DNA from: Fibrobacterota bacterium
GTDB lineage: Bacteria; Fibrobacterota; Fibrobacteria; UBA11236
Direction: 5' to 3'
Assembly (NCBI GenBank): GCA_023249635.1
Contig: JAHFCH010000003.1
Coordinates: forward strand, 36,617 to 100,616
DNA length: 64,000 bases
Each line of letters starts with the position of its first letter. The stretch's first letter is position 1. Positions 34,932 through 50,374 of the stretch are shown here, piece after piece. The notes below the pieces were generated by a model that was given only the letters and a program-made list of their open reading frames with translations, was not told the origin of the DNA and did not search any database. The position numbers were made by a program, and so were the translations under genes.

Positions 34932-35639
34932 TCAACCCCACTTCACGCGCGCGATGCCGGGGCAGGCGGTGAGGTTCTCGACCACTTGGCGTGAAAGCGA
35001 TATGACGTCGTTGCGGCGCATCTTCACGTCGCAATGCAAGGTGCGGCAGTTGCCCGCCACATCGTAGTCGAGGGCGATGCGCTGTATGCGCACGCCGGCG
35101 TCTTCCAGCTTCTTGCGGATCTCATCATCGCTGATTCCGTTCAGTCCCAGCACCACGGTCACGGTGCAGTAATAGTCCTTCTTGACATGCGCCTCCATAT
35201 GCGGCATCGCATAGAGCGCGAAGGTGGCGATGCCTGTGCCGATAACGCCGATGGCGATATGCCCGCTGCCGAAGGCGAGTCCGAGGATGGTGATGAACCA
35301 CAGCACCGCCGCCGTGGTCACGCCGCGCACCAAGGTGCCCTGGCGTATGATGGCTCCCGCACCCAGGAAGCCGATGCCCGTAAGGATGCCGGCCGCCAGG
35401 CGGGCCCGGTCGGGACGCATCATTCCGGCGGCCTGGTTGAAGCTTTCGCGGTAGAAATCCTCGGAGAGGATCATGGCCAGGCACGAAGCCACGCACGCCA
35501 AGATGGTGGTTTTGAGCCCCGCGGCCCGTCCATGGCTTTCCCGCTCCAGCCCTAAGACCAAACCGGCCGCCATCGCAAAACCTATCCGAATCAACACATC
35601 TTTGAGGTCCAAAGCCGTAACGGGATTCAAAATCGCCAT
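34932..35639 (-). CDS. MgtC/SapB family membrane protein
   Basis: IRIGFAMAAGLVLGLERE...GLKT signature of MgtC, with the C-terminal ACT-like soluble domain. Start at internal Met MAILNP (35639), not the track's 35798. Confidence 0.8.
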   Translation of the reverse strand: MAILNPVTALDLKDVLIRIGFAMAAGLVLGLERESHGRAAGLKTTILACVASCLAMILSEDFYRESFNQAAGMMRPDRARLAAGILTGIGFLGAGAIIRQGTLVRGVTTAAVLWFITILGLAFGSGHIAIGVIGTGIATFALYAMPHMEAHVKKDYYCTVTVVLGLNGISDDEIRKKLEDAGVRIQRIALDYDVAGNCRTLHCDVKMRRNDVISLSRQVVENLTACPGIARVKWG

Positions 35640-35736
35640 CCTTTCCTCAGGTAACCTTGATTTTAAGCCTCCCCGCGACGGAAAACAACCACCCGAGGTC
35701 CCGGTTCCGGATAAAAAAATCTGAAAAATAGTTGCA

Positions 35737-36330
35737 TTGGGACTTGCCCCGCAAAAATGGTGTAATGGTAAAATGGTGGCGGAGGAGAAACTCCCCATGA
35801 AGATGCCAGCACATATTTCCCCGTGGTTGAACGATGAAGAACTTGCGGCCTGGGTGCGCGAAGCGCCAACCCAGGATGCCTACAAAAAGAGGCTGGCCAT
35901 CTGGCTGACTCGCCGCGGTCCGTTCCACGCGCATAAGGTTTCCGAACTGTTGCAGGTTTCCAAGCAGGCCGTGTGGCTTTGGATCAAGCAATACAACCAG
36001 GGCGGCCCGGACAGCCTGGACCGCAAGGGCCGGGGCGGCCGCCGCCGGGCCTATCTCTCCCTGGACCAGGAGCGCGCCTTGGTGGAGCGCCTGCAATCCC
36101 AGGTCGCGAAGGGCCAGGCCCGTAAGGCCAAGGAGCTCCTTCCCGAAGTGCTCGAGGCGGTGGGACAGAACGTGTCCGTCGCTTACGTGTACCGCTTGAT
36201 GCAGCGGCATGAACGCCGTCGAGGGCCCTCGGCCGCCAAACCCATGCGTAAGTTGGACGGCGAAACCGAAATGTCCCCCATACCGGTACAGCCCGGTACG
36301 GGCATGCCGGTCCAGAATCCGGTTGCCTGA
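35737..36330 (+). CDS. helix-turn-helix domain protein resembling the N-terminal HTH part of IS630-family transposases (no DDE domain)
   Basis: LLQVSKQAVWLWIKQYNQGGPDSLDRKGRGGRRRAYLSLDQERALVE resembles the winged-HTH of IS630/Tc1 OrfA (VS..TVYRW..RY...G...L.DR.RSGRP..L). No catalytic domain follows. Start ambiguous (M1, M13, M21 or M23). Confidence 0.45.
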   Translation: MGLAPQKWCNGKMVAEEKLPMKMPAHISPWLNDEELAAWVREAPTQDAYKKRLAIWLTRRGPFHAHKVSELLQVSKQAVWLWIKQYNQGGPDSLDRKGRGGRRRAYLSLDQERALVERLQSQVAKGQARKAKELLPEVLEAVGQNVSVAYVYRLMQRHERRRGPSAAKPMRKLDGETEMSPIPVQPGTGMPVQNPVA

Positions 36331-36575
36331 TCCGGAAAAATCCGTTTTCCCCTCTTGATCCACCGTCGTGGGGTTTTACGCCCCGCGATGGCGATCCTTC
36401 CACACCTGTTAACCTGCCGGTAACGGCCATCCGCATGTTTCCCCCGCCCTGGGAGCCCCGCTCCTGTTAGGCTGCGCGCCGCCCGCATTATTTACCCTTG
36501 TTTGCCCCATCTATGTTGGATCGTGTTCAACGTGACGAATCACTTACGAATTGATCACTCCGGATTTCAGGCGCG

Positions 36576-36591
36576 AAACGCATTTGCGTTT
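36576..36591. promoter_or_regulatory. 7-2-7 inverted repeat AAACGCA-TT-TGCGTTT followed by TATATATAT, ~70 bp upstream of the UbiA-family gene
   Basis: Perfect inverted repeat read directly; an AT-rich -10-like tract follows immediately. Candidate operator plus promoter. Confidence 0.3.
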
Positions 36592-36658
36592 ATATATATT
36601 CCCGCAAAGAACACAGGGCGAACGGTCGCGCCCTGCATCGCATTCCGGAGGGAACCTT

Positions 36659-37543
36659 ATGCATTCCATCAAAGCGCACATGCGGGAGTTGAAAGCGCCT
36701 TTCGTCCTCATCTATCTCTCGCTGATGGGCTTCCTGTGCATCTATTCCGTACAGCGTTACCTGCACCTTCGCTTCGAGCCGATGAGCTGCCTCAGCTTCA
36801 TGGGTATCATCTTCGGCGTGTATACCCTCAACCGCTTCACGGATACGGCCGAGGACTTCACCAACGATATCGGCCGCCTGCTCTTTTTCCAACGCAAGCG
36901 CAGCTTCCTCGCCATCGCAATCCTGTCCTTGGCCGCGAGCATGGGCTTCCTGCTGTGGGCCGAAAAGCTGAATTGGATGCATTGCCTGCTGCTCGCAATG
37001 GGTTTCGCCTATTCCTACCGCGTGGTTCCCTGGTTCGATCGGGCCAGCGGTTTCCAGCTCCTGCGCATCAAGGAAATGACCTTCCTCAAGAACCTATCGG
37101 TCTCGTTCCTGTGGGGCGCCGCGGTCTTCGTGGTGCCCATCGCCTATTCCGGGATCGTCGCTTTCGACCATAAGATGGTCTGGCTGCTGGCTTCGGGTCT
37201 CTTCGTCAGCACTTTCAACAACACCCTATTCGACGATATCCTCGACGAAGCCGGTGATCGCGTCGCGGGCATCAAGACCCTGCCCACCACCTGGGGCGTG
37301 CGCCGCTCCGAGTTCATGCTCATGGCCCTGGATCTGGTTTGGCTGGGCGCGGTAGCGGCGCTGTATTCAGCGCGCCACGTCGATGGCGCCCACGCCCTAT
37401 TCCTGGCGTTCTTGGGCATATACCCGTTCTTCTACCTGGTTCCGCATCTCCGCACCAAAACCAATAAGGGTTGGATCGACCTTCTGGCCGAAACCGATTT
37501 GCTGTTTTTCGCGGTGGGAATGCTCTTGCTCAGCTTCCGCTGA
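36659..37543 (+). CDS. UbiA-family prenyltransferase
   Basis: First Asp-rich motif NRFTDTAEDFTND and second FDDILDEAGDRVAGIKTLP, with ~8 TM segments. Start at internal ATG 36659 (MHSIKAHMREL). Confidence 0.75.
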   Translation: MHSIKAHMRELKAPFVLIYLSLMGFLCIYSVQRYLHLRFEPMSCLSFMGIIFGVYTLNRFTDTAEDFTNDIGRLLFFQRKRSFLAIAILSLAASMGFLLWAEKLNWMHCLLLAMGFAYSYRVVPWFDRASGFQLLRIKEMTFLKNLSVSFLWGAAVFVVPIAYSGIVAFDHKMVWLLASGLFVSTFNNTLFDDILDEAGDRVAGIKTLPTTWGVRRSEFMLMALDLVWLGAVAALYSARHVDGAHALFLAFLGIYPFFYLVPHLRTKTNKGWIDLLAETDLLFFAVGMLLLSFR

Positions 37544-37544
37544 G

Positions 37545-39329
37545 TCACCTGGCCAGGTGGTACTGGCGCTCTTTGATGCGGCCGCGGGGGCCGCTCTTCC
37601 GCAACATCCGGTTCAACACGTATTCTTCCGAGAAGATTTCCGGCCGGTTGCCCCGCCCGTGATCCAATACGTAGACGTTGCGCGCATGGTGCGAGACCAG
37701 GCATAGCTGCGGGAACATTGCCAAGCGGGTGAACTTTTCCGCCATGGTGCGTGCGCTGACCAATACCGTGACCAGATCGGGATTGAACTCCGGTCCTTCG
37801 AGATCTTCCACGCTCTGCACGATGCTCGGATTGACGCGGATGTTCTGGAACACGCGGATCAGATCGGGCATATTGTCCATGCCGTCCTTGACCACCACTA
37901 TCGGATGCTTCTGCGTCGCGTCCTCGTCCAGGTTCTGGGCGTATACCGGAAAGGTCATGATGAGCTTGAGGCCATGCTCGCCTTTCTTGGCGAGGTTCTT
38001 GGAGTAGGCGCTGATGCGGCCGCCATGGCTTTCCACGATGGTACGGGTTATCGACATGCCGAGACCCGTGCCGCCGTTGGCTTTTTTCGTGGTATAGAAG
38101 GCCTTGAACAGGCTTTCCAACTGCTCCTTGTCGCAGCCCACGCCGTTGTCTTCCACGCTCGCGAGGATCAGGGTATCGGTCGTGGATACCCGGATGCGGA
38201 TGTTGACGGCGTCGCCGCCCACGGCTTCGAAGCTGTTGTTGAAGATGTTTACGAACACCTGTTCCAGCTTGCCCCAATCCCCATGCATGAACCAATCCCG
38301 TTCGAGGCCGGTAAGCGTAAACGCGGCGCGGCGCGAAGGGTAATGCTTATCAATGGTCCCCTTGATCAGTTCGGCCAGGTTCACCGGATGCTTTTCGCGC
38401 AGCACCTCGGTGCGCGAGAGCTTGAGGATGTCGTCGCTGAAATCGGTGAGTCGCTCCACGGAGGTGACGATGTTCTTCACGATTTCCTTACCCTTATGGG
38501 ATAAGGCCTCGACCTCCTGGAGGATCTGCGCGTTGCCCGCGATCATGAACATGTAGTTCTTGATCTCGTGGTTGATGATGGCGGTCGATTCCCCCAACTG
38601 CTTGAGAGCGGTCACCTGCTCCAAGTCCCGGTAGGCCGTTTCCAGCTTGTCGAAATTCGTCTGGCGCTCGCGCAGGATCATCAGGAAGCGTTCGGCGAAG
38701 ATGAGCGATGCCATGATGCCGAAGGCGAGCACGCCCAACACCGTGAAGCTGGTGAGGATCTGCTTCATCATCCCCATCAGGATGCCGATGTCTGCGAGGC
38801 CGCCTAGGATAAGGATCGCGAAACCGAACAGGTGGAACCGCAGGATGCGTTTCTCCGGCGCAGCGCATTTGTTGATGCGTTTGAGAATCACGTAATGGGC
38901 GGTGAAGATGTAGAAGACCACGTAGGGCAGGAAGGCCAGGTAGTATCCGAGGGTGGTGACGACCTTACCGCCCTCCGCGACAATCATCAGGCTGCTCTGG
39001 AAGGCCGCAGCGAGCAGGGAACTCACCGTGATCAGGAAAGGGATGGTTCGTAGCAGCGGGGAATTGGTGAGGATGCAGAGGTACCACAGGGAGAAGGGAA
39101 TGAAGATGCACGCGATGCCGTGATAGGCCCGCTGCCAGAAGACGTTTTGCGCCAGAGTCGCCGCGTAAGGAATTTGCCAGATATCGATGGCCGTCATCGC
39201 GCAGAGCAGGATTAAGGAAACACCGAAAAAGCGGAAACTTCTGTCGAAGTGGGTGCGGAGGTCAAGCAGAATGAACAGCAGGCCGACTGCGAAAAGAAAA
39301 GAGCAAATCACCTGCAACAGTACGTTCAC
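37545..39329 (-). CDS. sensor histidine kinase with polytopic N-terminal membrane sensor domain
   Basis: ~6 TM N-terminus. HisKA-like H box ESTAIINHEIKNYMFMIAG. HATPase_c DNGVGCDKEQLESLFKAFYTTKKANGGTGLGMSI. Extra ~120-aa C-terminal region. Codon usage looks less GC-rich than its surroundings. Confidence 0.8.
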   Translation of the reverse strand: MNVLLQVICSFLFAVGLLFILLDLRTHFDRSFRFFGVSLILLCAMTAIDIWQIPYAATLAQNVFWQRAYHGIACIFIPFSLWYLCILTNSPLLRTIPFLITVSSLLAAAFQSSLMIVAEGGKVVTTLGYYLAFLPYVVFYIFTAHYVILKRINKCAAPEKRILRFHLFGFAILILGGLADIGILMGMMKQILTSFTVLGVLAFGIMASLIFAERFLMILRERQTNFDKLETAYRDLEQVTALKQLGESTAIINHEIKNYMFMIAGNAQILQEVEALSHKGKEIVKNIVTSVERLTDFSDDILKLSRTEVLREKHPVNLAELIKGTIDKHYPSRRAAFTLTGLERDWFMHGDWGKLEQVFVNIFNNSFEAVGGDAVNIRIRVSTTDTLILASVEDNGVGCDKEQLESLFKAFYTTKKANGGTGLGMSITRTIVESHGGRISAYSKNLAKKGEHGLKLIMTFPVYAQNLDEDATQKHPIVVVKDGMDNMPDLIRVFQNIRVNPSIVQSVEDLEGPEFNPDLVTVLVSARTMAEKFTRLAMFPQLCLVSHHARNVYVLDHGRGNRPEIFSEEYVLNRMLRKSGPRGRIKERQYHLAR

Positions 39330-39353
39330 CGTGGGACCCTAACCTGGAAGAGA

Positions 39354-39430
39354 GGAGGTCGTCTGTTGATAACCTGGGGAATACTACTATGCAAGTTGTT
39401 GATACGTCAAGGGACAAGCTGTTGATAGCT
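39354..39430. promoter_or_regulatory. three perfect TGTTGATA direct repeats (plus one TATTGATA) and a GATAGCTAT element upstream of the histidine kinase gene
   Basis: TGTTGATA at 39354, 39387 and 39410. GATAGCTAT at 39414..39422. Sits 25-90 bp upstream of the kinase start (39329) in an AT-rich tract. Confidence 0.3.
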
Positions 39431-39441
39431 ATTGATAAGCA

Positions 39442-39945
39442 TCAAATAGCACTAGCATCTGTAAGTATCGCCGCTTCTTGTAAGGGCTGCTCAAGCAGAA
39501 CTTTCAGTTTTTCGAAACTGCGTTTCATTTGCCCGCGAAAGGCCCATGCAGAGATGGATTTCAGGAAAATGAAAACGCCGCCAGGAGTGATATCGGCACT
39601 GTATTTCAAACATGTGCCATCGGCCGTGGTTTCGAGCCGGAATTCCTCACGGTAGGCATTGTTGCCCGCTTTGCCTTGATTGCGAAAACCCGCGTCGGGT
39701 TCCAGGGAAATGATTTCGGAATAATCGACAAGGGAATTCCAGAGCAGGAATTTGTGCACGGTTTTGATGCGCGTGCCTTTTTTCCACGGCCCGGCATCCA
39801 ATTGTTGGATGGAGGCGATGCCTTCCTGCCAGCGGGCGAAATTCCGCACGTCGGTAAGGAAGGCGAAGACCTCGGCAGGCGATCGACGGATGGAAACCTC
39901 CAGCCGGATGGCTACGGCGTTCGCGGCTTGTGCTGCTTGTGGCAT
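39442..39945 (-). CDS. SRPBCC (polyketide cyclase/dehydrase-like) family protein
   Basis: VFAFLTDVRNFARWQEGIASIQ opening and overall ~165-aa architecture of Polyketide_cyc2-like proteins. Start uncertain; overlaps the downstream JmjC gene end. Confidence 0.55.
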   Translation of the reverse strand: MPQAAQAANAVAIRLEVSIRRSPAEVFAFLTDVRNFARWQEGIASIQQLDAGPWKKGTRIKTVHKFLLWNSLVDYSEIISLEPDAGFRNQGKAGNNAYREEFRLETTADGTCLKYSADITPGGVFIFLKSISAWAFRGQMKRSFEKLKVLLEQPLQEAAILTDASAI

Positions 39946-40757
39946 GCGCAATTCCCTTTCCGGTAAAGCCCCGCAAGATGCAAAGCGTGTTTGACCGCGC
40001 CGGGCAAACCGCGCAGCAACGTGTCATCAATGCCGAAGCCGAAGCAGCTCACCGAAATGGAAGTTTCCAATCCCAGCACATCGTGCCACCAACCGCGCGG
40101 GGTGAACAACGTGTCGCCTGCCGATACCACGACCTTGGTCCCCATCGCCCTGGAGAAAAGGGGATGGCGGGCCGCATCGGGATTGCGCGCATCCACTTCG
40201 GAAAGGACCGAACCGATATCGTATTTGCGGCCCGGGTAAAGCCAGGCGGATTGCGCCGGCGGATACAGGGTGAATTCCTTGGAGCCATGGAATACGGAGA
40301 AAAGATTATCGGCGATATCGTAGTGCAGGCCGGTATAAGAACCGGCCGGGCCGATCCAGCCCACCGGGAATTTGAGCCGGCCGCGCCAGTACGAGAAATC
40401 CACGTCGGCGCGGAGCTCCGGGAAGGCGGCGAAGAGATCGAAGTAGGCCAGATAAGGCAGGCCCTCGGCGACGGCGACATTCCCTTCCGCCCCACCCCCT
40501 TCGCGAAGATGCCGCATGTACTTCCCCAGATCCCATTCCGAGTACCGAGGGGTTTCCTGCAATACGTTTCCGTATTCGATACGCACGGTCTTATGGGCGC
40601 CGATACGTTCGAAGTAGCCGGGAGTCCATTTGGCCAGGGCCGGCCAGGATTCGAGCAGGCCGGTGAGTATCACGGGTTTGCGGGCCGGAAGGATTTCCGC
40701 CAGAAACCGGCGGCGATCAGGTTTGTGGATGCGGTCGATTTCATCCATTAGGGCCAT
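39912..40757 (-). CDS. JmjC/cupin-like (Cupin_8) 2-oxoglutarate/Fe(II) oxygenase family protein
   Basis: HYDIADNLFSVFHGSKEFTLYPP...WWHDV contains the HxD...H iron-binding cupin motifs of JmjC-domain hydroxylases. Confidence 0.65.
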   Translation of the reverse strand: MALMDEIDRIHKPDRRRFLAEILPARKPVILTGLLESWPALAKWTPGYFERIGAHKTVRIEYGNVLQETPRYSEWDLGKYMRHLREGGGAEGNVAVAEGLPYLAYFDLFAAFPELRADVDFSYWRGRLKFPVGWIGPAGSYTGLHYDIADNLFSVFHGSKEFTLYPPAQSAWLYPGRKYDIGSVLSEVDARNPDAARHPLFSRAMGTKVVVSAGDTLFTPRGWWHDVLGLETSISVSCFGFGIDDTLLRGLPGAVKHALHLAGLYRKGNCACHKQHKPRTP

Positions 40758-40767
40758 GGGTGGAAAA

Positions 40768-40777
40768 GATAGCTATC
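40768..40777. promoter_or_regulatory. perfect 10-bp palindrome GATAGCTATC in the divergent JmjC / LuxR-regulator promoter region
   Basis: Read directly. The same GATAGCTAT core occurs upstream of the histidine kinase at 39414..39422. Confidence 0.35.
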
Positions 40778-40848
40778 ATTTTTTTACCTTTTCCTGATTT
40801 CAGGCCGTCAATCCCTAGGTACTTCCAAGGCAATTCCAAGGTAAACCG

Positions 40849-41499
40849 ATGAGCTCCGAGCACAGGGTTTCAATCGTCATGGTCGAGGACAATCTCGACC
40901 TGGCGCAGACCATCCAAGATTTCCTATCGACCGAGCCCGGTCTGGAAGTCGTACACGTAGCCCACGATACCAAGGGGTTCCAACTGGCCGTGGCCGATCT
41001 GCTCCCCGAAATGGCCCTGATCGATATCAACCTCGATACCCCCAGGGCCGGCCTGGACCTCCTGCTGTGGCTAAGGAAGCTCTATCCCGTGGTCCAACCG
41101 GTCATCATGACCGTGAACCAGGGGGATGTCCTGGAAGCCTACCAGGCAGGCGCCCGCGGTTATGTGCTGAAAACGAGCCTGGAAATCCTCGCGCCTACCC
41201 TGCTCGATGTAAGTCAGGGGAAACTCATCATCCCTCCCCAAGTGGGGGAACTCTACGTAAAACAGGTCGCCGCTTCGGCGGAACTCTGGAAGAAATCCGT
41301 CGAGCTGGAGCGTTTTTCCGATCGGGAAAAGGAGATCCTGCGGCACCTCCGCGCCGGGATGCGGCGGGAGGATATCGGCGACAAGCTGAGCATTTCCTTC
41401 TTCACCGTACGCCGGCATATCCAGAATATGCTGGAAAAAACCGGAGAGCCTACCGTTAAGGCCATCCTGGAAAAATTCGGAGAGGTACTCGGCGGTTAG
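40849..41499 (+). CDS. two-component response regulator, NarL/FixJ (LuxR) family
   Basis: Receiver domain (IVMVEDN, ALIDINLD, PVIMTV). LuxR-type HTH FSDREKEILRHLRAGMRREDIGDKLSISFFTVRRHIQNMLEKTG. Confidence 0.85.
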   Translation: MSSEHRVSIVMVEDNLDLAQTIQDFLSTEPGLEVVHVAHDTKGFQLAVADLLPEMALIDINLDTPRAGLDLLLWLRKLYPVVQPVIMTVNQGDVLEAYQAGARGYVLKTSLEILAPTLLDVSQGKLIIPPQVGELYVKQVAASAELWKKSVELERFSDREKEILRHLRAGMRREDIGDKLSISFFTVRRHIQNMLEKTGEPTVKAILEKFGEVLGG

Positions 41500-41704
41500 G
41501 TCCCTTTCGCGGGTATTTGGCCCTGCGAGGAAATTTGGCCGTCCAGTTAGGGCCGAAAGGGAGGCCGAACGCCTTTCCCTCTCCGAGAACAGAACTTAAT
41601 GCCCCCCAGACGTCCTGGAAACACCATCCTGCGTGGTGCTTTACCCCTCCCTTAAGCCCTCCCCCAAGTTGGATTTTGTCCGGATTTAGTTAACGTATCA
41701 CCCC

Positions 41705-42013
41705 ATGCTGGTCAACGCCGTGACCGTCTACGTTAAGCCGGAGCATATCGCCGATTTCATCGCAGCCTCCATGGAAAACCATGCCGGGTCGCGCCAGGAA
41801 TCCGGCAATTTCCGCTTCGACGTGTTGCAATCATCCGACGATCCTGCCCGCTTCTTGTTGTACGAAGTGTTCGCCTCGCAGGCAGCCGTAGAAGAGCATC
41901 GCAAGACGGCTCACTACCTAGCTTGGAAGACCAAGGTGGAACCCTGGATGGCCAAGCCCCGGGAACCGCGTTGGCATACTATCGTCGCCCCGACGGATCC
42001 CGCTTCATGGTGA
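41705..42013 (+). CDS. antibiotic biosynthesis monooxygenase (ABM)/YgiN-like family protein
   Basis: 102 aa. MLVNAVTVYVKPEHIADFIAA...FRFDVLQS...FLLYEVFASQAAVEEHRKTAHY is the ABM ferredoxin-like fold signature. Confidence 0.7.
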   Translation: MLVNAVTVYVKPEHIADFIAASMENHAGSRQESGNFRFDVLQSSDDPARFLLYEVFASQAAVEEHRKTAHYLAWKTKVEPWMAKPREPRWHTIVAPTDPASW

Positions 42014-43975: not shown

Positions 43976-45286
43976 ATGCGGCTCGCCCTGTCCACCCTCT
44001 CCCTGTTGTGGGCCTTGCCCGCTGCCAGCCTCGCCGCCGGCGAAACCGCGCCGGCCCCTTCGGCGGCTGCGCCCGCCCCGGTAGTTGCGCCCGTGCCCGC
44101 TAAAGAAGTCATCGATACCGCCGATGCTCCCGCAGCCGCGGTTCCCGTCGCTGCCGCCCCGGATACGGGTACCGTCGCCAAGACCGACTCCGCCGCGCCC
44201 GCCTCGGCCGCCCAGGAACCCGTGCCCCTGGAGATCCGCAACGCGTACCTGGCTCACCTGGACCTCACCGGTACGGTCCAGCTCAAAGCCTTCTACCACA
44301 ACTTCGCCGCCGAAAAGGATGCGGACAAGCGCCTGAGCTTCCAATTGCGGCGCTTCGAATTCGGCCTGGAAGCGTCCTTCAACACCCACTCGGGCTTCAA
44401 GGGCGTAATGCTTCTGGATGGGGCCAACAAGAACTTCGGCGTGAACGATGCTTATCTGTACTACCGCGTGAACGACCTGGTCGGATTCAAAGGCGGTAAA
44501 ATGCGCCGCCCGTTCTCGCAGGAGTCCCTGCAATCGGCTCGCGGCCTGTATACCATTGAGCGCGGCGAGCTCTACTTCGATTTCCTCGCCAACACCACCG
44601 GCTACGCCTACTACGACCTCGGCGCCCTGGCCTACGGCGGCTTCGAAGAGGACGGCATGAGCCTGGGCTATGAACTCGGCGTCTTCAACGGCAAGCAGAA
44701 CGACGATGCGGCCAAGGATTATTCCGGCCAGCAGGACGAGAAGACGGACAAGGGCTTTAAAGCCAAGGACGTGGTCTTCCGCGTGAACGCTTCGCCGTTC
44801 AAGGCCCTCAAGGTGGAAGGCGCGGTATCGACCAAGGCGGCCGAAAACGTTTCCAACCCGGCGGATTTCGGCTATGCGGTCAACACCGCATATCAGTTGG
44901 GGGCCGATTTCCATTACGATAAGCTGCGCCTGCTGGGCGAAGCCGCCTGGGGAGACAACCATAAGAAGCAGGATTCCAAGATTATCGACGGCAGCGTCCT
45001 CTTCTTCACCTTCTATACGGCGGCGGTCTGGCGCGAAGACTACAGCCGCGGGCGCGCCAGCGAACTGGTGCTGAAGATGGAAGGTCTCGATCCCGATTTC
45101 GAACCCGGTACGGGCGAAGGCGCGCCCAATGACGGCAAGCTTCGCTACACGCTGGGATGCAATTACTTCTTCACGCCCACCATCAGCATCATGGCGGATT
45201 ACGCCGCGCTGCAGCCCATCACCAAGGTGGCGGGCGAGGACAAGCTCACCCACGACTTCGATGTCATGTGGCGGATGAGCTTCTGA
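43976..45286 (+). CDS. putative outer-membrane porin (OprO/OprP-like beta-barrel) with Ala/Pro-rich N-terminal linker
   Basis: Signal peptide MRLALSTLSLLWALPAASLAAG. Ala/Pro-rich linker. ~350-aa beta-rich region with alternating aromatic/hydrophobic residues, ending in terminal Phe (MWRMSF), typical of OM beta-barrels. Confidence 0.5.
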   Translation: MRLALSTLSLLWALPAASLAAGETAPAPSAAAPAPVVAPVPAKEVIDTADAPAAAVPVAAAPDTGTVAKTDSAAPASAAQEPVPLEIRNAYLAHLDLTGTVQLKAFYHNFAAEKDADKRLSFQLRRFEFGLEASFNTHSGFKGVMLLDGANKNFGVNDAYLYYRVNDLVGFKGGKMRRPFSQESLQSARGLYTIERGELYFDFLANTTGYAYYDLGALAYGGFEEDGMSLGYELGVFNGKQNDDAAKDYSGQQDEKTDKGFKAKDVVFRVNASPFKALKVEGAVSTKAAENVSNPADFGYAVNTAYQLGADFHYDKLRLLGEAAWGDNHKKQDSKIIDGSVLFFTFYTAAVWREDYSRGRASELVLKMEGLDPDFEPGTGEGAPNDGKLRYTLGCNYFFTPTISIMADYAALQPITKVAGEDKLTHDFDVMWRMSF

Positions 45287-46121
45287 TCCAGTGGGCGCGC
45301 TTCTCGGCGTAGCCCAGGTAGGACAGTGCCAGCGAAGGCGTAAAGCGGAAGCGGAAATCCGGCGGGACCCGACGGGTCGCCAGCAGTTTCCAGAATGCCC
45401 GGCTCGCGACCACGGGGCGCATCCCCAGCATGCGGCGCGGCGCCAACCCGGCCTCCGCGCACATGCCTTCCAATTCACCCGGTTTGATGAAAAGCGGCAA
45501 TACATGCATATGCCGGGGCGTATTCCGCACGAACCATTCCACACCCTTGATGATGATGAGCCAGGCCAGGGGATTGCGGTTGAAGGTGTGGAAGAAGAAC
45601 AGCCCGCCCGGGCGCAGCACGCGCGCGGCTTCGGCCACCACGCGTCCCGGGGCGCTGACATGCTCCAGGAAATCCAAGGCGCACACCGCATCGAAACATC
45701 CGTCCGGGAAAGGTAACCTGTACGCGTCGGCGGCGAGGTAACCCCGGCCGGGCCCCCCCGGCGCCACCCTCAGGCTGCCCAAGGAAAGGTCGGCCCCCAT
45801 GACGGTATGGCCGCGGTCGGCCAATTCGCGGGAAAGGAATCCCGCCCCGCACCCGATGTCGAGCACGCGGCCGGGACCCCCGTCCCATGCCTCGCGCAAG
45901 CGCTTGGCGATCCAAGGATGCTTGAGTGCGCCCTCGGCGCGCAACAGGGCCACCGGATCGTCGTAGGCTTCGTGCCAACGCGCGCCCAATCCATCGTAGA
46001 AGCCGTTATTGACCAGGGCGCGATCGGAAACGCCGCTGGCGTCGCTACGGACCGAATCGCGGTCCGCGCTTGCCCGGAAAGAGTCGCTCAGTGGCGTGCG
46101 ATGCGCAAGGACGGTTTCCAT
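45264..46121 (-). CDS. class I SAM-dependent methyltransferase (UbiG-like)
   Basis: VLDIGCGAGFLSRELADRGHTVMGADLS (motif I and post-I acidic residue) and GCFDAVCALDFLEHV (motif II). Start at internal Met METVLAHRT (46121). Confidence 0.7.
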   Translation of the reverse strand: METVLAHRTPLSDSFRASADRDSVRSDASGVSDRALVNNGFYDGLGARWHEAYDDPVALLRAEGALKHPWIAKRLREAWDGGPGRVLDIGCGAGFLSRELADRGHTVMGADLSLGSLRVAPGGPGRGYLAADAYRLPFPDGCFDAVCALDFLEHVSAPGRVVAEAARVLRPGGLFFFHTFNRNPLAWLIIIKGVEWFVRNTPRHMHVLPLFIKPGELEGMCAEAGLAPRRMLGMRPVVASRAFWKLLATRRVPPDFRFRFTPSLALSYLGYAEKRAHWIRSSSAT

Positions 46122-46588
46122 GGTCCATTCCAGAAGAGAAGTTGCCAGATCGCGAACACGATGGTGAGCCCCAGCTGCACCGCCAAGAAGCGGCCGAACA
46201 GGGACCGGCCCGTAGCATCGGCGGCGAAGGAGATGCCGGGCCATAGATCAGCGAAGGCCCATGCCCCCACCAAACCCAGTAATACGGGATGCAGCAGGAA
46301 CAGGCAGGCATGCAGCCAACATTCCGCGCCGGAGCAATCGCGGGCGTGCACCCATTCGTCCTTGGTGACGAACGCGCTGGAACCCAACGCGGCGGCGGCA
46401 TACATCATCGCGCCGGAAGCAGTCACGGGCAGGCGCACCGCCAAGCCATAGCACAACAATACGCTCAAGGTATCCAGGGGATGGCCCCAGCGCTCCCATG
46501 CGCCCAGGCCCCGGCGCACGTGCATGGTCTCGTCGGCCAGCATCAGACCAGCGTGCAGGACGAAGGGAATAAGCGCCAACCGCCACAT
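46088..46588 (-). CDS. small integral membrane protein, unknown function (part of the type III PKS operon)
   Basis: C-terminal 166 aa of track ORF 46088..46735, starting MWRLALIPFVLHAGLMLA. ~4 predicted TM helices. Start 3 nt downstream of the PKS stop. Confidence 0.45.
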   Translation of the reverse strand: MWRLALIPFVLHAGLMLADETMHVRRGLGAWERWGHPLDTLSVLLCYGLAVRLPVTASGAMMYAAAALGSSAFVTKDEWVHARDCSGAECWLHACLFLLHPVLLGLVGAWAFADLWPGISFAADATGRSLFGRFLAVQLGLTIVFAIWQLLFWNGPWKPSLRIARH

Positions 46589-46590
46589 GT

Positions 46591-47913
46591 TCAGGCCTTT
46601 CGGAGCATGGTGCCGTAAATGGTCAGTCCCGGCCCAAAGGCCAGGCTGGTGATCAGGGTTCCGGGCTTGACCGAAGCATCGGCCAGCATCCCCGCCCATA
46701 CGTGCGGCAAGGTGGCGGATGACATGTTGCCGCAAGCTTTGAGCACCGCACGGCTGGCGGCCACCTGCGCGGGTTTCAGTTCCAGCATCCCCGCAACCCT
46801 ATCGATGATACGCGGGCCGCCGGGATGGATGGCGAACAACCCGCGCCCCAGGGCTTCCGCGGGATTGGTACCCGTACGTTCGTACAAGCGCTCGATAAAT
46901 TCACCCAAGGCGCCGGCGATCATGTCGGGCACTTCCCGCGCCAACAGGATGCGCATGCCATGATCCCCCAACTGCCAACCGATGGCATCCAGGGTATCGG
47001 GCACGATTTCCTCATGCACCCCGAGGAAGCGCAGACCGGGAGCATCGTCCTCGTTGCGGATGCTATAGCGGATGTGCCCGTCGGCGAAAAGGCTTTGCAC
47101 TACCAGCTGTTCGGGCATGTGTTGGGAGGGGTTCAGATGCAGGGAACAGAACTCGGTATGCACGATATCGACCCGGCCGCCCTTACGGGCTTGCGAGGCG
47201 ACTGCGGGACCGGCACCGCCATCGCGGCGCGCCCAGCCGGGCCCGGCGGAATTACCGGCAGGGGAAACCCTTGGAGATGCCAGGAAGGCGGTAGCCATGC
47301 GCAAGGCGGGCATGGAGGCGTAGCAACCCATGTGGTAGGCGTGGACCACTCCAGTGCGCCCGCGCCAACCCTTTGCGGCCACCAGCTTTTGGGCCGCGCT
47401 GGGCGCGACATAACCCGTGCAGGAAACGTGGATCAACTCATCCGGCGGCTCCTGGTCCTGGGACTCCCAGGAAATGGGGGCACCGTCGGCATCCTGGGCG
47501 CGCCCCGGCCTCGCCTCGGCGGCGACCGCGGCGGCGGCGCTGCCGTTCTCCGCACCGGGATAGAAGGCCGCGAAAGCCCGATCGGCCACCTCCTGAAAGG
47601 CTTGCATGCGCACCCCCATGCCGGCCCCGTTGGCATCCCTCCCCACGTCGAAAATCCGCATGCGTTCCCAATCCTGATGGATGAAATCATCCATGTCGAA
47701 ACCCCGATAGGCCAGGTTCTCGGGATTGCACCCGTAACGGGAAACCAGGCGTTCCATCCGCCCCCGAAAAACGGCCTCATCAAATTCCGGACCGCTAATG
47801 CCCGCCTCGGCATGGGCATGGGCCGAGGCCAGCCAACGCACCGCCGCGTCGTGCGCGCCCAAGTGCTTGGGCCTCAATATGCGGAAGTCCCCAATCAGGC
47901 AATCAACAGACAT
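46591..47913 (-). CDS. type III polyketide synthase (chalcone/stilbene synthase superfamily)
   Basis: Active-site Cys context HMGCYASM, IHPGGPRIID (His region) and C-terminal LAFGPGLT (Asn/GFGPG loop) match type III PKS. Two low-complexity insertions (GAENGSAAAAVAAEARPGRAQDADGAP...; PRVSPAGNSAGPGWARRDGGAGPAVA). Confidence 0.8.
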   Translation of the reverse strand: MSVDCLIGDFRILRPKHLGAHDAAVRWLASAHAHAEAGISGPEFDEAVFRGRMERLVSRYGCNPENLAYRGFDMDDFIHQDWERMRIFDVGRDANGAGMGVRMQAFQEVADRAFAAFYPGAENGSAAAAVAAEARPGRAQDADGAPISWESQDQEPPDELIHVSCTGYVAPSAAQKLVAAKGWRGRTGVVHAYHMGCYASMPALRMATAFLASPRVSPAGNSAGPGWARRDGGAGPAVASQARKGGRVDIVHTEFCSLHLNPSQHMPEQLVVQSLFADGHIRYSIRNEDDAPGLRFLGVHEEIVPDTLDAIGWQLGDHGMRILLAREVPDMIAGALGEFIERLYERTGTNPAEALGRGLFAIHPGGPRIIDRVAGMLELKPAQVAASRAVLKACGNMSSATLPHVWAGMLADASVKPGTLITSLAFGPGLTIYGTMLRKA

Positions 47914-48016
47914 GGCGGTTCCTCCCGGGATTTTCGATCGGGGGGAAGATAAAGAAAAAGCCCGGCGGGACGCCAGGCTTTTATGGGAGAGAATGTCCGC
48001 GGTTGCGGGAGGCTAT

Positions 48017-48979
48017 TCAGCGCGAATAGAAGAACTTGCCCAGTACGCGGTTGCCCGATTGGACGAAGTACACGCCCGTCGGGGCATCAGCGCCCACGGC
48101 GGTCTTGCCGTTCCACTGGTACAGATAGCCCGTCTGGTGCAGACTGGCGACTTTATTGCCCATCATCCCGTAAAGGCTCAACGGCTCGCTACCCGAAACG
48201 TTCGCTCCTGCTTTGATGAGTACCATGCCACCGTTTTGGCTGGCCTGGAACCCGCTCTGGGATGCCTTGGCCGATTTGATGCCGGAAATGGGCGTGGGCA
48301 GCGAATCGTACATCAGTTTGACTAGCTGAACGGTGAAATCCACCTTCTGGGTATCGCTGTTTCCGTAATCCTTCCAGGTATCCAGCAGCACTTTCACAAG
48401 GGCCGCAGAATCGGGATGGCTGGTTAGCTCGGGGTAGAAATGCGTGAAGCTGCCTTTGGAAGCGCCGGTCGTGCTGTAAAGCGTGCGTTTCATGGTGGCA
48501 TTCCCATACCACATGACCAGCATCGGCTTGTCCTTGAACTTACCAATGGCATCGTACAAAGCAACGGTATCGCCGTTCACCTTGGATGCGAATCCGAACC
48601 AGTATTCGTTCCAGCCCGGCTTCTTGAACATGAATTCGCCATCATTGATCTTCAGGAAGTAATCGCTGGTGGGCGCAGAAGTAAAAGCTTTGGCCGCCTT
48701 CTTACGGGTCGCGAAGGTCACTTCCTTCTTTACCCAGGTATCGCAGGTGCCGCTGCCGTTCCAATCGGTAATCATCTTGTATTCGGTGGTATCGTGCAGC
48801 AAGGTCACAGCCCCCATGGGCTTGTCGACCTTGGTGCCGGCCGCCGCATGCATGGTACCCTGCGCGTTACCCGTGAGGATATACTGGGTGCCCTCCTGCA
48901 TGTGGTAGGACTGTTCGCAGACTTTGGCACCTGCCCAAGTCGCCACGCAAAGACCGGTTAGGACGATGATTTTGTTCAT
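48017..48979 (-). CDS. secreted protein of unknown function with T9SS C-terminal sorting domain
   Basis: Signal peptide MNKIIVLTGLCVATWAGA. C-terminus SLYGMMGNKVASLHQ...TGVYFVQSGNRVLGKFFYSR matches the Por/T9SS CTD. Lys-rich; codon usage looks more AT-rich than neighbours. Confidence 0.55.
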   Translation of the reverse strand: MNKIIVLTGLCVATWAGAKVCEQSYHMQEGTQYILTGNAQGTMHAAAGTKVDKPMGAVTLLHDTTEYKMITDWNGSGTCDTWVKKEVTFATRKKAAKAFTSAPTSDYFLKINDGEFMFKKPGWNEYWFGFASKVNGDTVALYDAIGKFKDKPMLVMWYGNATMKRTLYSTTGASKGSFTHFYPELTSHPDSAALVKVLLDTWKDYGNSDTQKVDFTVQLVKLMYDSLPTPISGIKSAKASQSGFQASQNGGMVLIKAGANVSGSEPLSLYGMMGNKVASLHQTGYLYQWNGKTAVGADAPTGVYFVQSGNRVLGKFFYSR

Positions 48980-49159
48980 ATTCGGTACCTTTTAATCTAG
49001 GCGAAAAAACCCAGGCCGCAATCCTATTATCATTAATTTGTAGTTTTTCTGCATGTTTTTGCTCTCTTTGATGCAAGGAGCATCGACTCCGGAAAAAGCG
49101 CGAAACCGTTGGGTTTCCCCTGAATTAGGGACTTTCCGGCGTCTGGCTGGAGCGCCGCG

Positions 49160-50374
49160 TTGAGCAAACCCCGCATCCTCTACATTTCCTCCACTTACAG
49201 CCGTGACGAAAACGACAACCAGAATCCCTGGATGATCGACACCATCCGGCAGCTGAGCCGGGCGGGCTACGCCATCGAAGTGTTGGCCCCGGCCTATAAA
49301 GGGCTGAAAAGCCATACGGTCGGCGGGGTAACCGTCCATCGCTTCCGCTATTTCTTCGCCGGGAGGGAGACCCTTACCCATGATCAAGGGGCCCCGAACA
49401 AGATCCGGGGCAGCCTACTGATCAAGCTCCTGTTCTTCCCCTACCTCTTCTTCGGGACCTTGGCCGCCATGCGCGTCGCGCGTCGGGGCCGCTACGATTT
49501 CATCCACTGCCATTGGCCCTTTCCCCACGGTCTCATGGGCTGGGCCGCCTGCCTGGCGGCGCCCAACCGTCCCCGTCTCATCCTGCATTTCCACGGCGCC
49601 TGCCTTTTGCTCGCGGCCAAGTTCAAGCCCATCGCGCCCTTGCTCCGCTTCTGCGTGCGCCGCGCCCACGGCATCGTCTCCAACTCGCGCTTTACCGCCG
49701 GGATGGTGGAAAAGCTGCTGCCCGCCCTGCCTGTAAAACAATGGATCATCGCGTTCGGATCGCCGCTCTCCGGGGATCCGCTTCCCCCTGCCCGCAATCC
49801 CGTCAAACTCATCCTGACTGTGGGTCGCGTGGTGGAACGCAAAGGCATCGCTTACCTGCTGCGCGCGCTGCCCGCGATTTCCGCGGTCATGGACGCCAAG
49901 GTGGCCATCGTGGGCAAGGGCGATCCCAAGGTGGAAGCCGACCTGCGCGCAGTAACCGAGGAGTTACGCCTGGGGGGCCGCGTCGTGTTCGCGGGCAAGG
50001 TGCCCGAGGCCGATCTCATCCGCTGGTACCAGGACTGCGACGTGTTCTGCCTGCCCGCCATCGTGGATTCCCAGGGCGAGACCGAAGGCCTGGGAGTGGT
50101 GCTTCTCGAAGCCCTCAATTACGCGCGACCGGTGGTGGCTTCCAACGTGGGAGGCATCCCGGACATCGTCCGCCATGGGGAGACGGGTCTGCTGTGCCCG
50201 GAGAAGGATCCGCAGGCCTTGGCCACCGCCATCCTGGAATTGCTGCGCGATCCGGAACGGGCAAACCGCCTGGGACGGCAGGGTCATGCCCTGGTGCGTA
50301 CGGAGTTCTCCTGGGAACATGTGGTGGGGCAATGGGAAGCCTTCTACGCCGAAGCTTCCGGTCCCCCTATTTAA
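49160..50374 (+). CDS. glycosyltransferase family 4 (GT-B, Glycos_transf_1)
   Basis: C-terminal GT4 motifs: FCLPAIVDSQGETEGLGVVLLEALNYARPVVASNVGGIPDIV (EX7E). Apparent TTG start (LSKPR...); no upstream in-frame ATG. Confidence 0.8.
   Translation: MSKPRILYISSTYSRDENDNQNPWMIDTIRQLSRAGYAIEVLAPAYKGLKSHTVGGVTVHRFRYFFAGRETLTHDQGAPNKIRGSLLIKLLFFPYLFFGTLAAMRVARRGRYDFIHCHWPFPHGLMGWAACLAAPNRPRLILHFHGACLLLAAKFKPIAPLLRFCVRRAHGIVSNSRFTAGMVEKLLPALPVKQWIIAFGSPLSGDPLPPARNPVKLILTVGRVVERKGIAYLLRALPAISAVMDAKVAIVGKGDPKVEADLRAVTEELRLGGRVVFAGKVPEADLIRWYQDCDVFCLPAIVDSQGETEGLGVVLLEALNYARPVVASNVGGIPDIVRHGETGLLCPEKDPQALATAILELLRDPERANRLGRQGHALVRTEFSWEHVVGQWEAFYAEASGPPI

Follow-up and report, generated by a model that had tools for sequence, protein, structure and literature searches.

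A conserved repeat array at a sensor kinase promoter in a Fibrobacterota bacterium: a putative operator and its candidate binders

The closest described counterparts of the locus treated here include the following two. In PhoP-box and Pho-box promoters, hexamers are directly repeated with an 11-bp period and overlap the -35 element, the enterobacterial PhoP box being (T/G)GTTTA-N5-(T/G)GTTTA. In the two-component systems of the NarL/FixJ family (VraR, NarL, DevR/DosR), the regulators join a receiver to a GerE domain, and kinases such as NarX, VraS, LiaS and DesK are of the HisKA_3 type. We analyzed a 64-kb stretch of contig JAHFCH010000003.1 (below, the window) from a Fibrobacterota bacterium, which carries a sensor histidine kinase gene and, on the opposite strand, the gene of a NarL/VraR-like response regulator. 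A preliminary description made from the sequence alone had linked these two genes through a shared AT-rich promoter motif. According to the reading that we favour, and which as a whole seems to us probable, the kinase promoter carries a real array of short boxes, the palindrome in front of the regulator gene is a coincidence, and the neighbourhood is vertically inherited. The outcome is the correction of a tempting but spurious motif link, with little wider consequence.

The box array at the kinase promoter

Three perfect direct repeats had been reported at the kinase promoter, and their presence is confirmed: the octamer TGTTGATA begins at 39364, 39397 and 39420, and these are its only copies in the window, all of them on the plus strand and within 64 bp. 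A fourth box with one mismatch lies next to them, and the four boxes (A3, A2, A1 and A0) follow each other with start-to-start spacings of 33, 23 and 10 bp (Table 1). The 112-bp intergenic region between the kinase and SRPBCC genes was shuffled 20,000 times with its dinucleotides preserved, and only 2 of the shuffles had any 8-mer in three or more copies, thus the repeats are beyond chance and the array is real. A position-weight matrix (PWM) was made from the box copies and scanned over the window; the four boxes are its only strong matches (15.8-18.2 bits), and the next-best site (13.2 bits) lies within a coding region. The box consensus on the kinase strand is yTRTCAACAg. PWM and core-hexamer scans upstream of the regulator, the paralogous kinases, and the MgtC, HTH and UbiA genes revealed no boxes. 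A literature search on Fibrobacter two-component promoters turned up nothing relevant.

The array surrounds the sole sigma-70-like site within positions 37300-41900 (4.6 kb), TTGACG-18-TAGTAT on the kinase strand. Judging from this site, transcription of the kinase gene would start at ~39374 and produce a leader of ~45 nt. A terminator scan of the stretch from the SRPBCC gene to the kinase gene found none, and the kinase gene may also receive read-through from upstream.

A scan of the GTDB genomes provided 36 orthologous kinase loci, and further loci came from contig look-ups (L-numbers below). The promoter alignment comprises six loci, namely the window, L047, L002, L014, L001 and L003. Its invariant islands are A1, the -35 hexamer, A2, the -10 hexamer, A3 and the upstream element GCTATTTGAT, while the intervening bases and the leader vary. 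TTGAC is invariant in all six promoters, as is T.TCAACAG of box A3; the -10 column reads TAGTAT, TACTAT or TAATAT, and the A0 position is less conserved among the orthologues. At larger distance, the complete chromosome with locus L016 (kinase 44% identical) carries CTATCAACA, TATCAATA and CTATCAACA with 19 + 11 bp spacing upstream of the promoter. The opposite orientation, TGTTGA-N5-TGTTGA, is found in L004, L008/L042, L010 and L048, where the second copy forms the -35 hexamer TTGAAT.

The 7-mers most enriched upstream of the kinase orthologues are TATCAAC and ATCAACA. The 160 bp upstream of the kinase gene contain a core hexamer in all loci whose kinase is 43% or more identical, mostly two or three of them; of the loci below 43% identity, nearly all lack it. 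In each locus, clusters of the core occur only upstream of the kinase orthologue, the scanned sequence amounting to ~470 kb (the window and ~400 kb of related loci). Within these limits, the box pattern provisionally appears to be a dedicated clade-specific operator, not a generic promoter word.

It can thus be proposed that the kinase gene has a sigma-70-type promoter of its own, with four phased 8-bp boxes placed around TTGACG-18-TAGTAT, and that these boxes are a putative operator array of a sequence-specific DNA-binding protein setting kinase expression. The upstream pair A0/A1 would occupy activator-like positions, and the boxes in the spacer and at +4 would occupy repressor-like ones. 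With its four TRTCAACA boxes, the consensus-predicted promoter offers a testable cis-element for a lineage of uncultivated Fibrobacteria; if the binder of the boxes is found, they would be among the first regulatory sites defined in the phylum.

Could the repeats be devoid of any regulatory role, as relics of local duplication or as -35-like TTGA words in an AT-rich spacer? The TTGA in the core does resemble a -35 half-site, the second copy is the -35 element TTGAAT itself in the loci with the inverted form, and the close relatives have perhaps diverged too little to erase neutral sequence. However, the boxes are better conserved than the sequence between them, and down to 44-47% kinase identity the motif persists through changes of its orientation, number and position. 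With no comparable cluster elsewhere in ~470 kb, and with the shuffle result of 2 in 20,000, we regard this explanation as quite improbable.

Another alternative, to which we give still less credence, is a DnaA-type cluster coupling kinase expression to the replication initiator. Box A3 is TTATCAACA, one mismatch from TTATCCACA, and canonical TTWTNCACA boxes (TGTGGATAA, TTATCCACA, TTTTCCACA) are present upstream of the kinase gene in L004 (-109), L009 (-121) and L016 (-56); those of L004 and L009 are the only ones in ~13.8 kb, and one-mismatch variants occur in L002, L005 and L047. On the other hand, the mismatch affects a position at which known DnaA boxes are conserved, only 3 of the 17 loci have a canonical box, and the GC-skew profile bears no sign of an origin here. 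A search of the window and related loci for a dnaA gene, which could set the box type of the phylum, found none. The canonical boxes map to ~5892 in L004, ~5880 in L009 and ~5945 in L016.

The word common to both intergenic regions

The preliminary description had further proposed that GATAGCTAT(C) is the site of the regulator at two promoters, that of the kinase gene and the divergent one between the regulator and Cupin_8 genes, so that the regulator would control its own gene together with the kinase, SRPBCC and Cupin_8 genes. Some of the observations behind this four-gene regulon hold. The sequence GATAGCTATC at 40768-40777 is a perfect 10-bp palindrome, and GATAGCTAT is present in the kinase promoter, although at 39424-39432, ten bases off the 39414-39422 given for it. 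In that promoter it is the seam between boxes A0 and A1, TGTTGATA-GC-TATTGATA, and the word truly common to both intergenic regions is the 10-mer TGATAGCTAT. When this intergenic pair is shuffled, 1.2% of the trials yield a common 10-mer, and 31 of the 300 pairs among the 25 intergenic regions of the window have one, hence the shared motif is not beyond chance. The argument that AT-rich words are improbable against a high-GC background was overstated, since the local base composition of the two intergenic regions is itself AT-rich (46% and 43% GC).

The orthologous loci largely refute the four-gene model. In the six-locus alignment, none of the other kinase promoters (L047, L002, L014, L001 and L003) contains the word GATAGCTAT(C); the A0/A1 seam reads GATAGAAT in L047, and L002 and L014 have a GACAAGCAT-type sequence there. 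The palindrome is missing upstream of Cupin_8 in L002 and L047 despite their identical gene order, and it is missing at the equivalent place in L048/L053, L051 and L052. In favour of the model are the common 10-mer, the perfect palindrome and the recurrence at the palindrome position of GATAG in L051 and L053 (within GATAGTAGTA) and GATCG in L052 (within GATCGTAGTA). The PWM detected no box in the regulator/Cupin_8 intergenic region, nor in any regulator-proximal intergenic region examined in the relatives, and the Cupin_8 and SRPBCC genes themselves are replaceable slot fillers. As a regulon of four genes the locus is therefore hardly credible. The motif said to link the kinase and regulator promoters stands at chance level and is not conserved in the orthologous promoters; as far as these alignments can tell, the word common to both is a coincidence. 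We also considered GATAGCTATC as a mini-terminator before a T-run and rejected it, the stem being only 3 bp around a 4-nt loop.

Kinase, regulator and the slot between them

In Fibrobacteria, the two genes belong to a conserved block with the order Porin_O_P - PseudoU synthase - Fe-ADH - ABM - regulator, then a variable slot (Table 1), then kinase - UbiA - HTH - MgtC - RNase H - Vut_1 - radical SAM. The regulator gene lies upstream of the kinase orthologue, at a distance of 1-8 kb, in the window, the P0002 contig, L001, L002, L004, L007, L009, L014, L042, L044, L047, L048, L050 and L052. It is gone from L003 and absent in L013 and L016 (in L016, none within 10 kb). Of the loci with kinase identities of 55% or more and sufficient sequence upstream, all 14 keep the linkage, bar L003. 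L048, L044, L042 and L052 have the regulator next to, and divergent from, a tandem row of paralogous kinases, in which the orthologue of the window kinase comes last. The likely ancestral order is RR<>HKp1-HKp2-HK (RR, response regulator; HK, histidine kinase; HKp, its paralogues), and in the window lineage the two paralogous kinases would have been swapped for the Cupin_8-SRPBCC pair. The kinase-UbiA pair and the regulator further upstream form a stable scaffold, with a slot between them that swaps its cargo.

Given this ancestral layout, the regulator and the kinase are probably partners, with moderate support from the conserved linkage. They do not form a co-operonic pair, their genes being on opposite strands and separated by 1.5 kb and two unrelated genes, and it is their co-localization that is conserved across the relatives. 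The partnership suggested earlier is therefore plausible, though not on the palindrome from which it had been deduced.

The neighbouring NarL-type regulator is also one candidate binder of the boxes. As the cognate partner of the kinase it would, when phosphorylated, bind the TRTCAACA boxes and autoregulate kinase expression, which we consider possible but on balance doubtful. In its favour are the conserved regulator-kinase linkage (14 loci with at least 55% identity, L003 excepted), the divergent position of the regulator relative to a kinase row that ends in the window-kinase orthologue (L048, L044, L042, L052), and the lack of a second receiver-domain regulator in the block. The conserved RR<>HKp1-HKp2-HK layout alone does not show the regulator at the boxes, because the regulator intergenic regions are boxless, the boxes of L003 and L016 are unlinked to a regulator, and the kinase has a DHp domain of the HisKA type.

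These and some further points weigh against the regulator as the binder or against the favoured reading itself. The divergent promoter of the regulator is boxless in every locus examined, although two-component systems usually autoregulate in such regulator-proximal regions. L003 keeps the boxes with the regulator lost from the slot, and L016 keeps them with no regulator within 10 kb. NarL-family proteins are found more often on inverted repeats, whereas the window boxes are direct repeats, and direct repeats at 10-11 bp are more typical of OmpR/PhoB-type regulators. The H-box of the kinase is HisKA and not HisKA_3, which is usual for NarL-family partners. The transcription start site derives from a consensus scan. 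Finally, the kinase promoters of close relatives (75-79% kinase identity) could be alike from short divergence alone; it is chiefly L016, L006 and the loci with the inverted form that speak for a function.

A different candidate binder, the IS630-like HTH protein encoded between UbiA and MgtC, was rejected, as it is missing from L046/L016 and the boxes are still there.

A more far-reaching interpretation, which appears unlikely, treats the boxes either as the signature operator of a Fibrobacteria-specific module or as a DnaA-box-like cluster tying the kinase to replication. If the module existed, a single NarL-type regulator would be the meeting point of up to three or four paralogous kinases with six transmembrane (TM) helices and Asp-less receiver tails, some of them without the phospho-acceptor His, and the last kinase would have a separate gate in its own box array.

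Table 1. Features of the window and contents of the slot in orthologous loci
Feature	Position or locus	Strand	Remark
Sensor histidine kinase gene	37545..39329	-	GTG start, 594 aa; Pfam HisKA + HATPase_c
Box A3, TATCAACA on kinase strand (TGTTGATA on plus strand)	39364..39371	-	~+4 to +11; 16.3 bits
-10 hexamer TAGTAT	39381..39386	-	18-nt spacer; consensus scan
Box A2, TATCAACA	39397..39404	-	In promoter spacer, against -35 hexamer; ~-30 to -23; 17.8 bits
-35 hexamer TTGACG of kinase promoter	39405..39410	-	Consensus scan
Box A1, TATCAACA	39420..39427	-	Upstream of -35 hexamer; ~-53 to -46; 18.2 bits
Box A0, TATCAATA (TATTGATA on plus strand)	39430..39437	-	One mismatch; upstream of -35; ~-63 to -56; 15.8 bits
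Upstream element GCTATTTGAT	39441..39450	-	Overlaps SRPBCC stop codon; kept even in loci without SRPBCC gene
SRPBCC gene (Polyketide_cyc2)	39442..39945	-	167 aa, low GC3; Pfam
Cupin_8 (JmjC-like) gene	39912..40757	-	281 aa, 34-nt overlap with SRPBCC start; Pfam Cupin_8, 1.3e-39
Palindrome GATAGCTATC	40768..40777		Window-specific; 10 nt upstream of Cupin_8 ATG at 40757
Candidate element upstream of regulator gene: ATTTTTTTACC, 17-nt gap, CGTCAA	40778..40811	+	Conserved; comparison of regulator loci
NarL/VraR-like response regulator gene	40849..41499	+	216 aa; Pfam Response_reg + GerE
Slot: two or three paralogous kinases	L048 (6428-9828), L044 (2463-7672), L042 (4370-7884), L052
Slot: Cupin_8 + SRPBCC	Window, P0002 contig, L002, L047
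Slot: SRPBCC alone	L014
Slot: methyltransferase	L001
Slot: Rce1-like gene + unknown gene	L009
Slot: GT87 + HAD-UbiA	L003		Regulator gone

By its domains, the kinase is a predicted class I histidine kinase (HisKA + HATPase_c). Six predicted TM helices are followed by the DHp domain, the catalytic ATPase domain and a receiver-like C-terminal domain (residues ~474-575) that lacks the acceptor Asp. The AlphaFold2 (AF2) model, with a predicted local distance difference test score (pLDDT) of 80, shows six TM helices and a long DHp helix, together with the catalytic domain and, at the C-terminus, an alpha/beta domain. The match to PF00512 (HisKA) is barely over the cut-off (28.0 bits against 26.9), and H254 in the H-box INHEIKNY, the phospho-acceptor expected of a class I DHp domain, is invariant across 66 homologues. 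This H-box is of the AtoS/ZraS/NtrB (HisKA) type. The catalytic domain of a class I histidine kinase is recognized by PF02518 (8.9e-20), and N361/N365, D394-G396-G398, F408/F411 and G422-L423-G424 constitute its invariant N, G1, F and G2 boxes.

With 21-31% identity to it, the paralogous kinases have the architecture of the window kinase; the DHp specificity residues of the kinase and its paralogues are similar, though this comparison is not decisive. In the second paralogue of L044 and L042 the phospho-acceptor His is missing (SEEIRGY, VKEIQNH), which suggests that these two are pseudokinases. Down to a kinase identity of 35%, nearly all Fibrobacterota loci have a UbiA-family prenyltransferase gene convergent with the kinase gene (window 34932-37543; L001-L036). 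In the Fibrobacteria clade, this gene is followed by the genes for the IS630-like HTH protein (~180 aa), MgtC, RNase H, Vut_1 and the radical-SAM protein.

In the receiver domain of the regulator (PF00072, 3.5e-11), E13, D14, D59, T88 and K108 are all present as read from the translation, thus including the acidic pocket and the acceptor Asp. The helix-turn-helix domain corresponds to PF00196 (GerE; 1.4e-9, residues 156-197). The closest solved structures are VraR (5hev), NarL (1a04) and DevR (3c3w), with full-length alignment. Among the NCBIfam equivalogs no cut-off is reached, the regulator scoring 81 bits vs 300 for MadR and 79 vs 250 for NarL; with scores so far below the cut-offs, it is not an orthologue of any characterized regulator.

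The regulator gene has a conserved upstream element of its own, directly beside the window-specific palindrome. A scan of metagenomes with the regulator added five useful orthologous loci, and ATTTTTTTACC, a T-run followed by ACC, was found upstream of the regulator in 13 of 15 loci (window, L001, L002, L004, L007, L009, L014, L044, L049-L053), with a distance from ATTTTTTTACC(TT) to the start codon of 8 to 129 nt. In 8 of these 13 loci, a 17-nt gap is followed by CGTC, CGTT, CGAT or TGTC. The 13-mer of the element occurs once in the window. The -35/-10 pairs of promoters of extracytoplasmic function (ECF) sigma factors have a geometry similar to T-run-ACC-N17-CGTC, and the element is a candidate promoter of the ECF-sigma type.

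Was the module acquired, as its base composition had seemed to indicate? For the kinase this does not hold: its GC content at third codon positions (GC3) is 0.82 and so exceeds the median of the window (0.77), the low GC content of the gene as a whole results from a GC2 (the same at second positions) of 0.36, as expected of a membrane protein, and its synteny with UbiA extends across the phylum. For the SRPBCC and Cupin_8 genes acquisition is plausible. They occupy the variable slot, and SRPBCC has a GC3 of 0.59, the lowest among the credible genes in its part of the window. The SRPBCC gene is confined to the window, the P0002 contig, L002, L047 and L014, and the Cupin_8 gene to the first four of these. 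The Cupin_8-SRPBCC pair alone looks like a lineage-specific arrival.

The gene identities given earlier are supported by Pfam for the kinase, the SRPBCC protein and the NarL/LuxR-type regulator; for the JmjC-like gene the Cupin_8 match is strong (137 bits), and the JmjC and JmjC_2 models remain below their gathering scores (18.9 vs 24 and 21.7 vs 22). The best NCBIfam match of the SRPBCC protein is the Rv0910-type toxin family, far below the cut-off. The locus is flanked by UbiA, the IS630-like HTH gene and MgtC on one side and by ABM and Fe-ADH on the other, and it is an ordinary two-component neighbourhood, probably inherited vertically. Rfam and transfer RNA scans of the window gave zero matches, and neither intergenic region has an RNA element. 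The kinase homologues come from metagenome-assembled genomes labelled Fibrobacteres, Fibrobacterota, Fibrobacteria and Chitinivibrionales, and by these matches the source is an uncultivated Fibrobacterota bacterium.

Past the Porin_O_P gene, a conserved cluster extends over ~45260-50374 (window coordinates converted by hand from the gene table). It encodes a type III polyketide synthase (Chal_sti_synt; minus strand, 46591-47913), a methyltransferase and a GT4 glycosyltransferase and also includes two small unknown genes. The cluster is present in L047 and L048 as well, and may be of the alkylresorcinol or alkylpyrone lipid type.

Comparison with described systems

The window regulator resembles the NarL/FixJ family (VraR, NarL, DevR/DosR) in its REC + GerE architecture. 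The difference lies in the linked kinase, whose DHp domain is of the HisKA type found in AtoS and ZraS, and not of the HisKA_3 type of NarX, VraS, LiaS and DesK, as well as in the gene arrangement, the kinase and regulator genes being neither adjacent nor co-transcribed.

With the PhoP-box promoters, the locus has in common the TGTTGA-N5-TGTTGA form at the kinase promoters of L048, L004, L042 and L010, in which the second copy is the -35 hexamer; this resemblance serves as no more than a lead. An MgtC gene, three genes from the kinase, is a further likeness to these systems. The window boxes differ by their opposite orientation and their spacing of 10/23/33 bp, reaching into the spacer and past +1. 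Moreover, no regulator of the OmpR/PhoB family is encoded in the block, and the sensor part of the window kinase is unrelated to that of PhoQ.

In the placement of an N-terminal six-TM bundle ahead of the DHp-CA core, the window kinase is similar to the polytopic 7TMR-DISM and HisKA_7TM-like kinases, and some of its homologues match PF16927 or PF07695, whereas the window kinase itself has no match to the 7TM Pfam models. The CikA-type hybrid kinases with pseudo-receiver tails represent another near system. What distinguishes the window kinase from the known polytopic and hybrid kinases is that its full-length family is seemingly restricted to Fibrobacterota, where it is almost always convergent with a UbiA-family gene.

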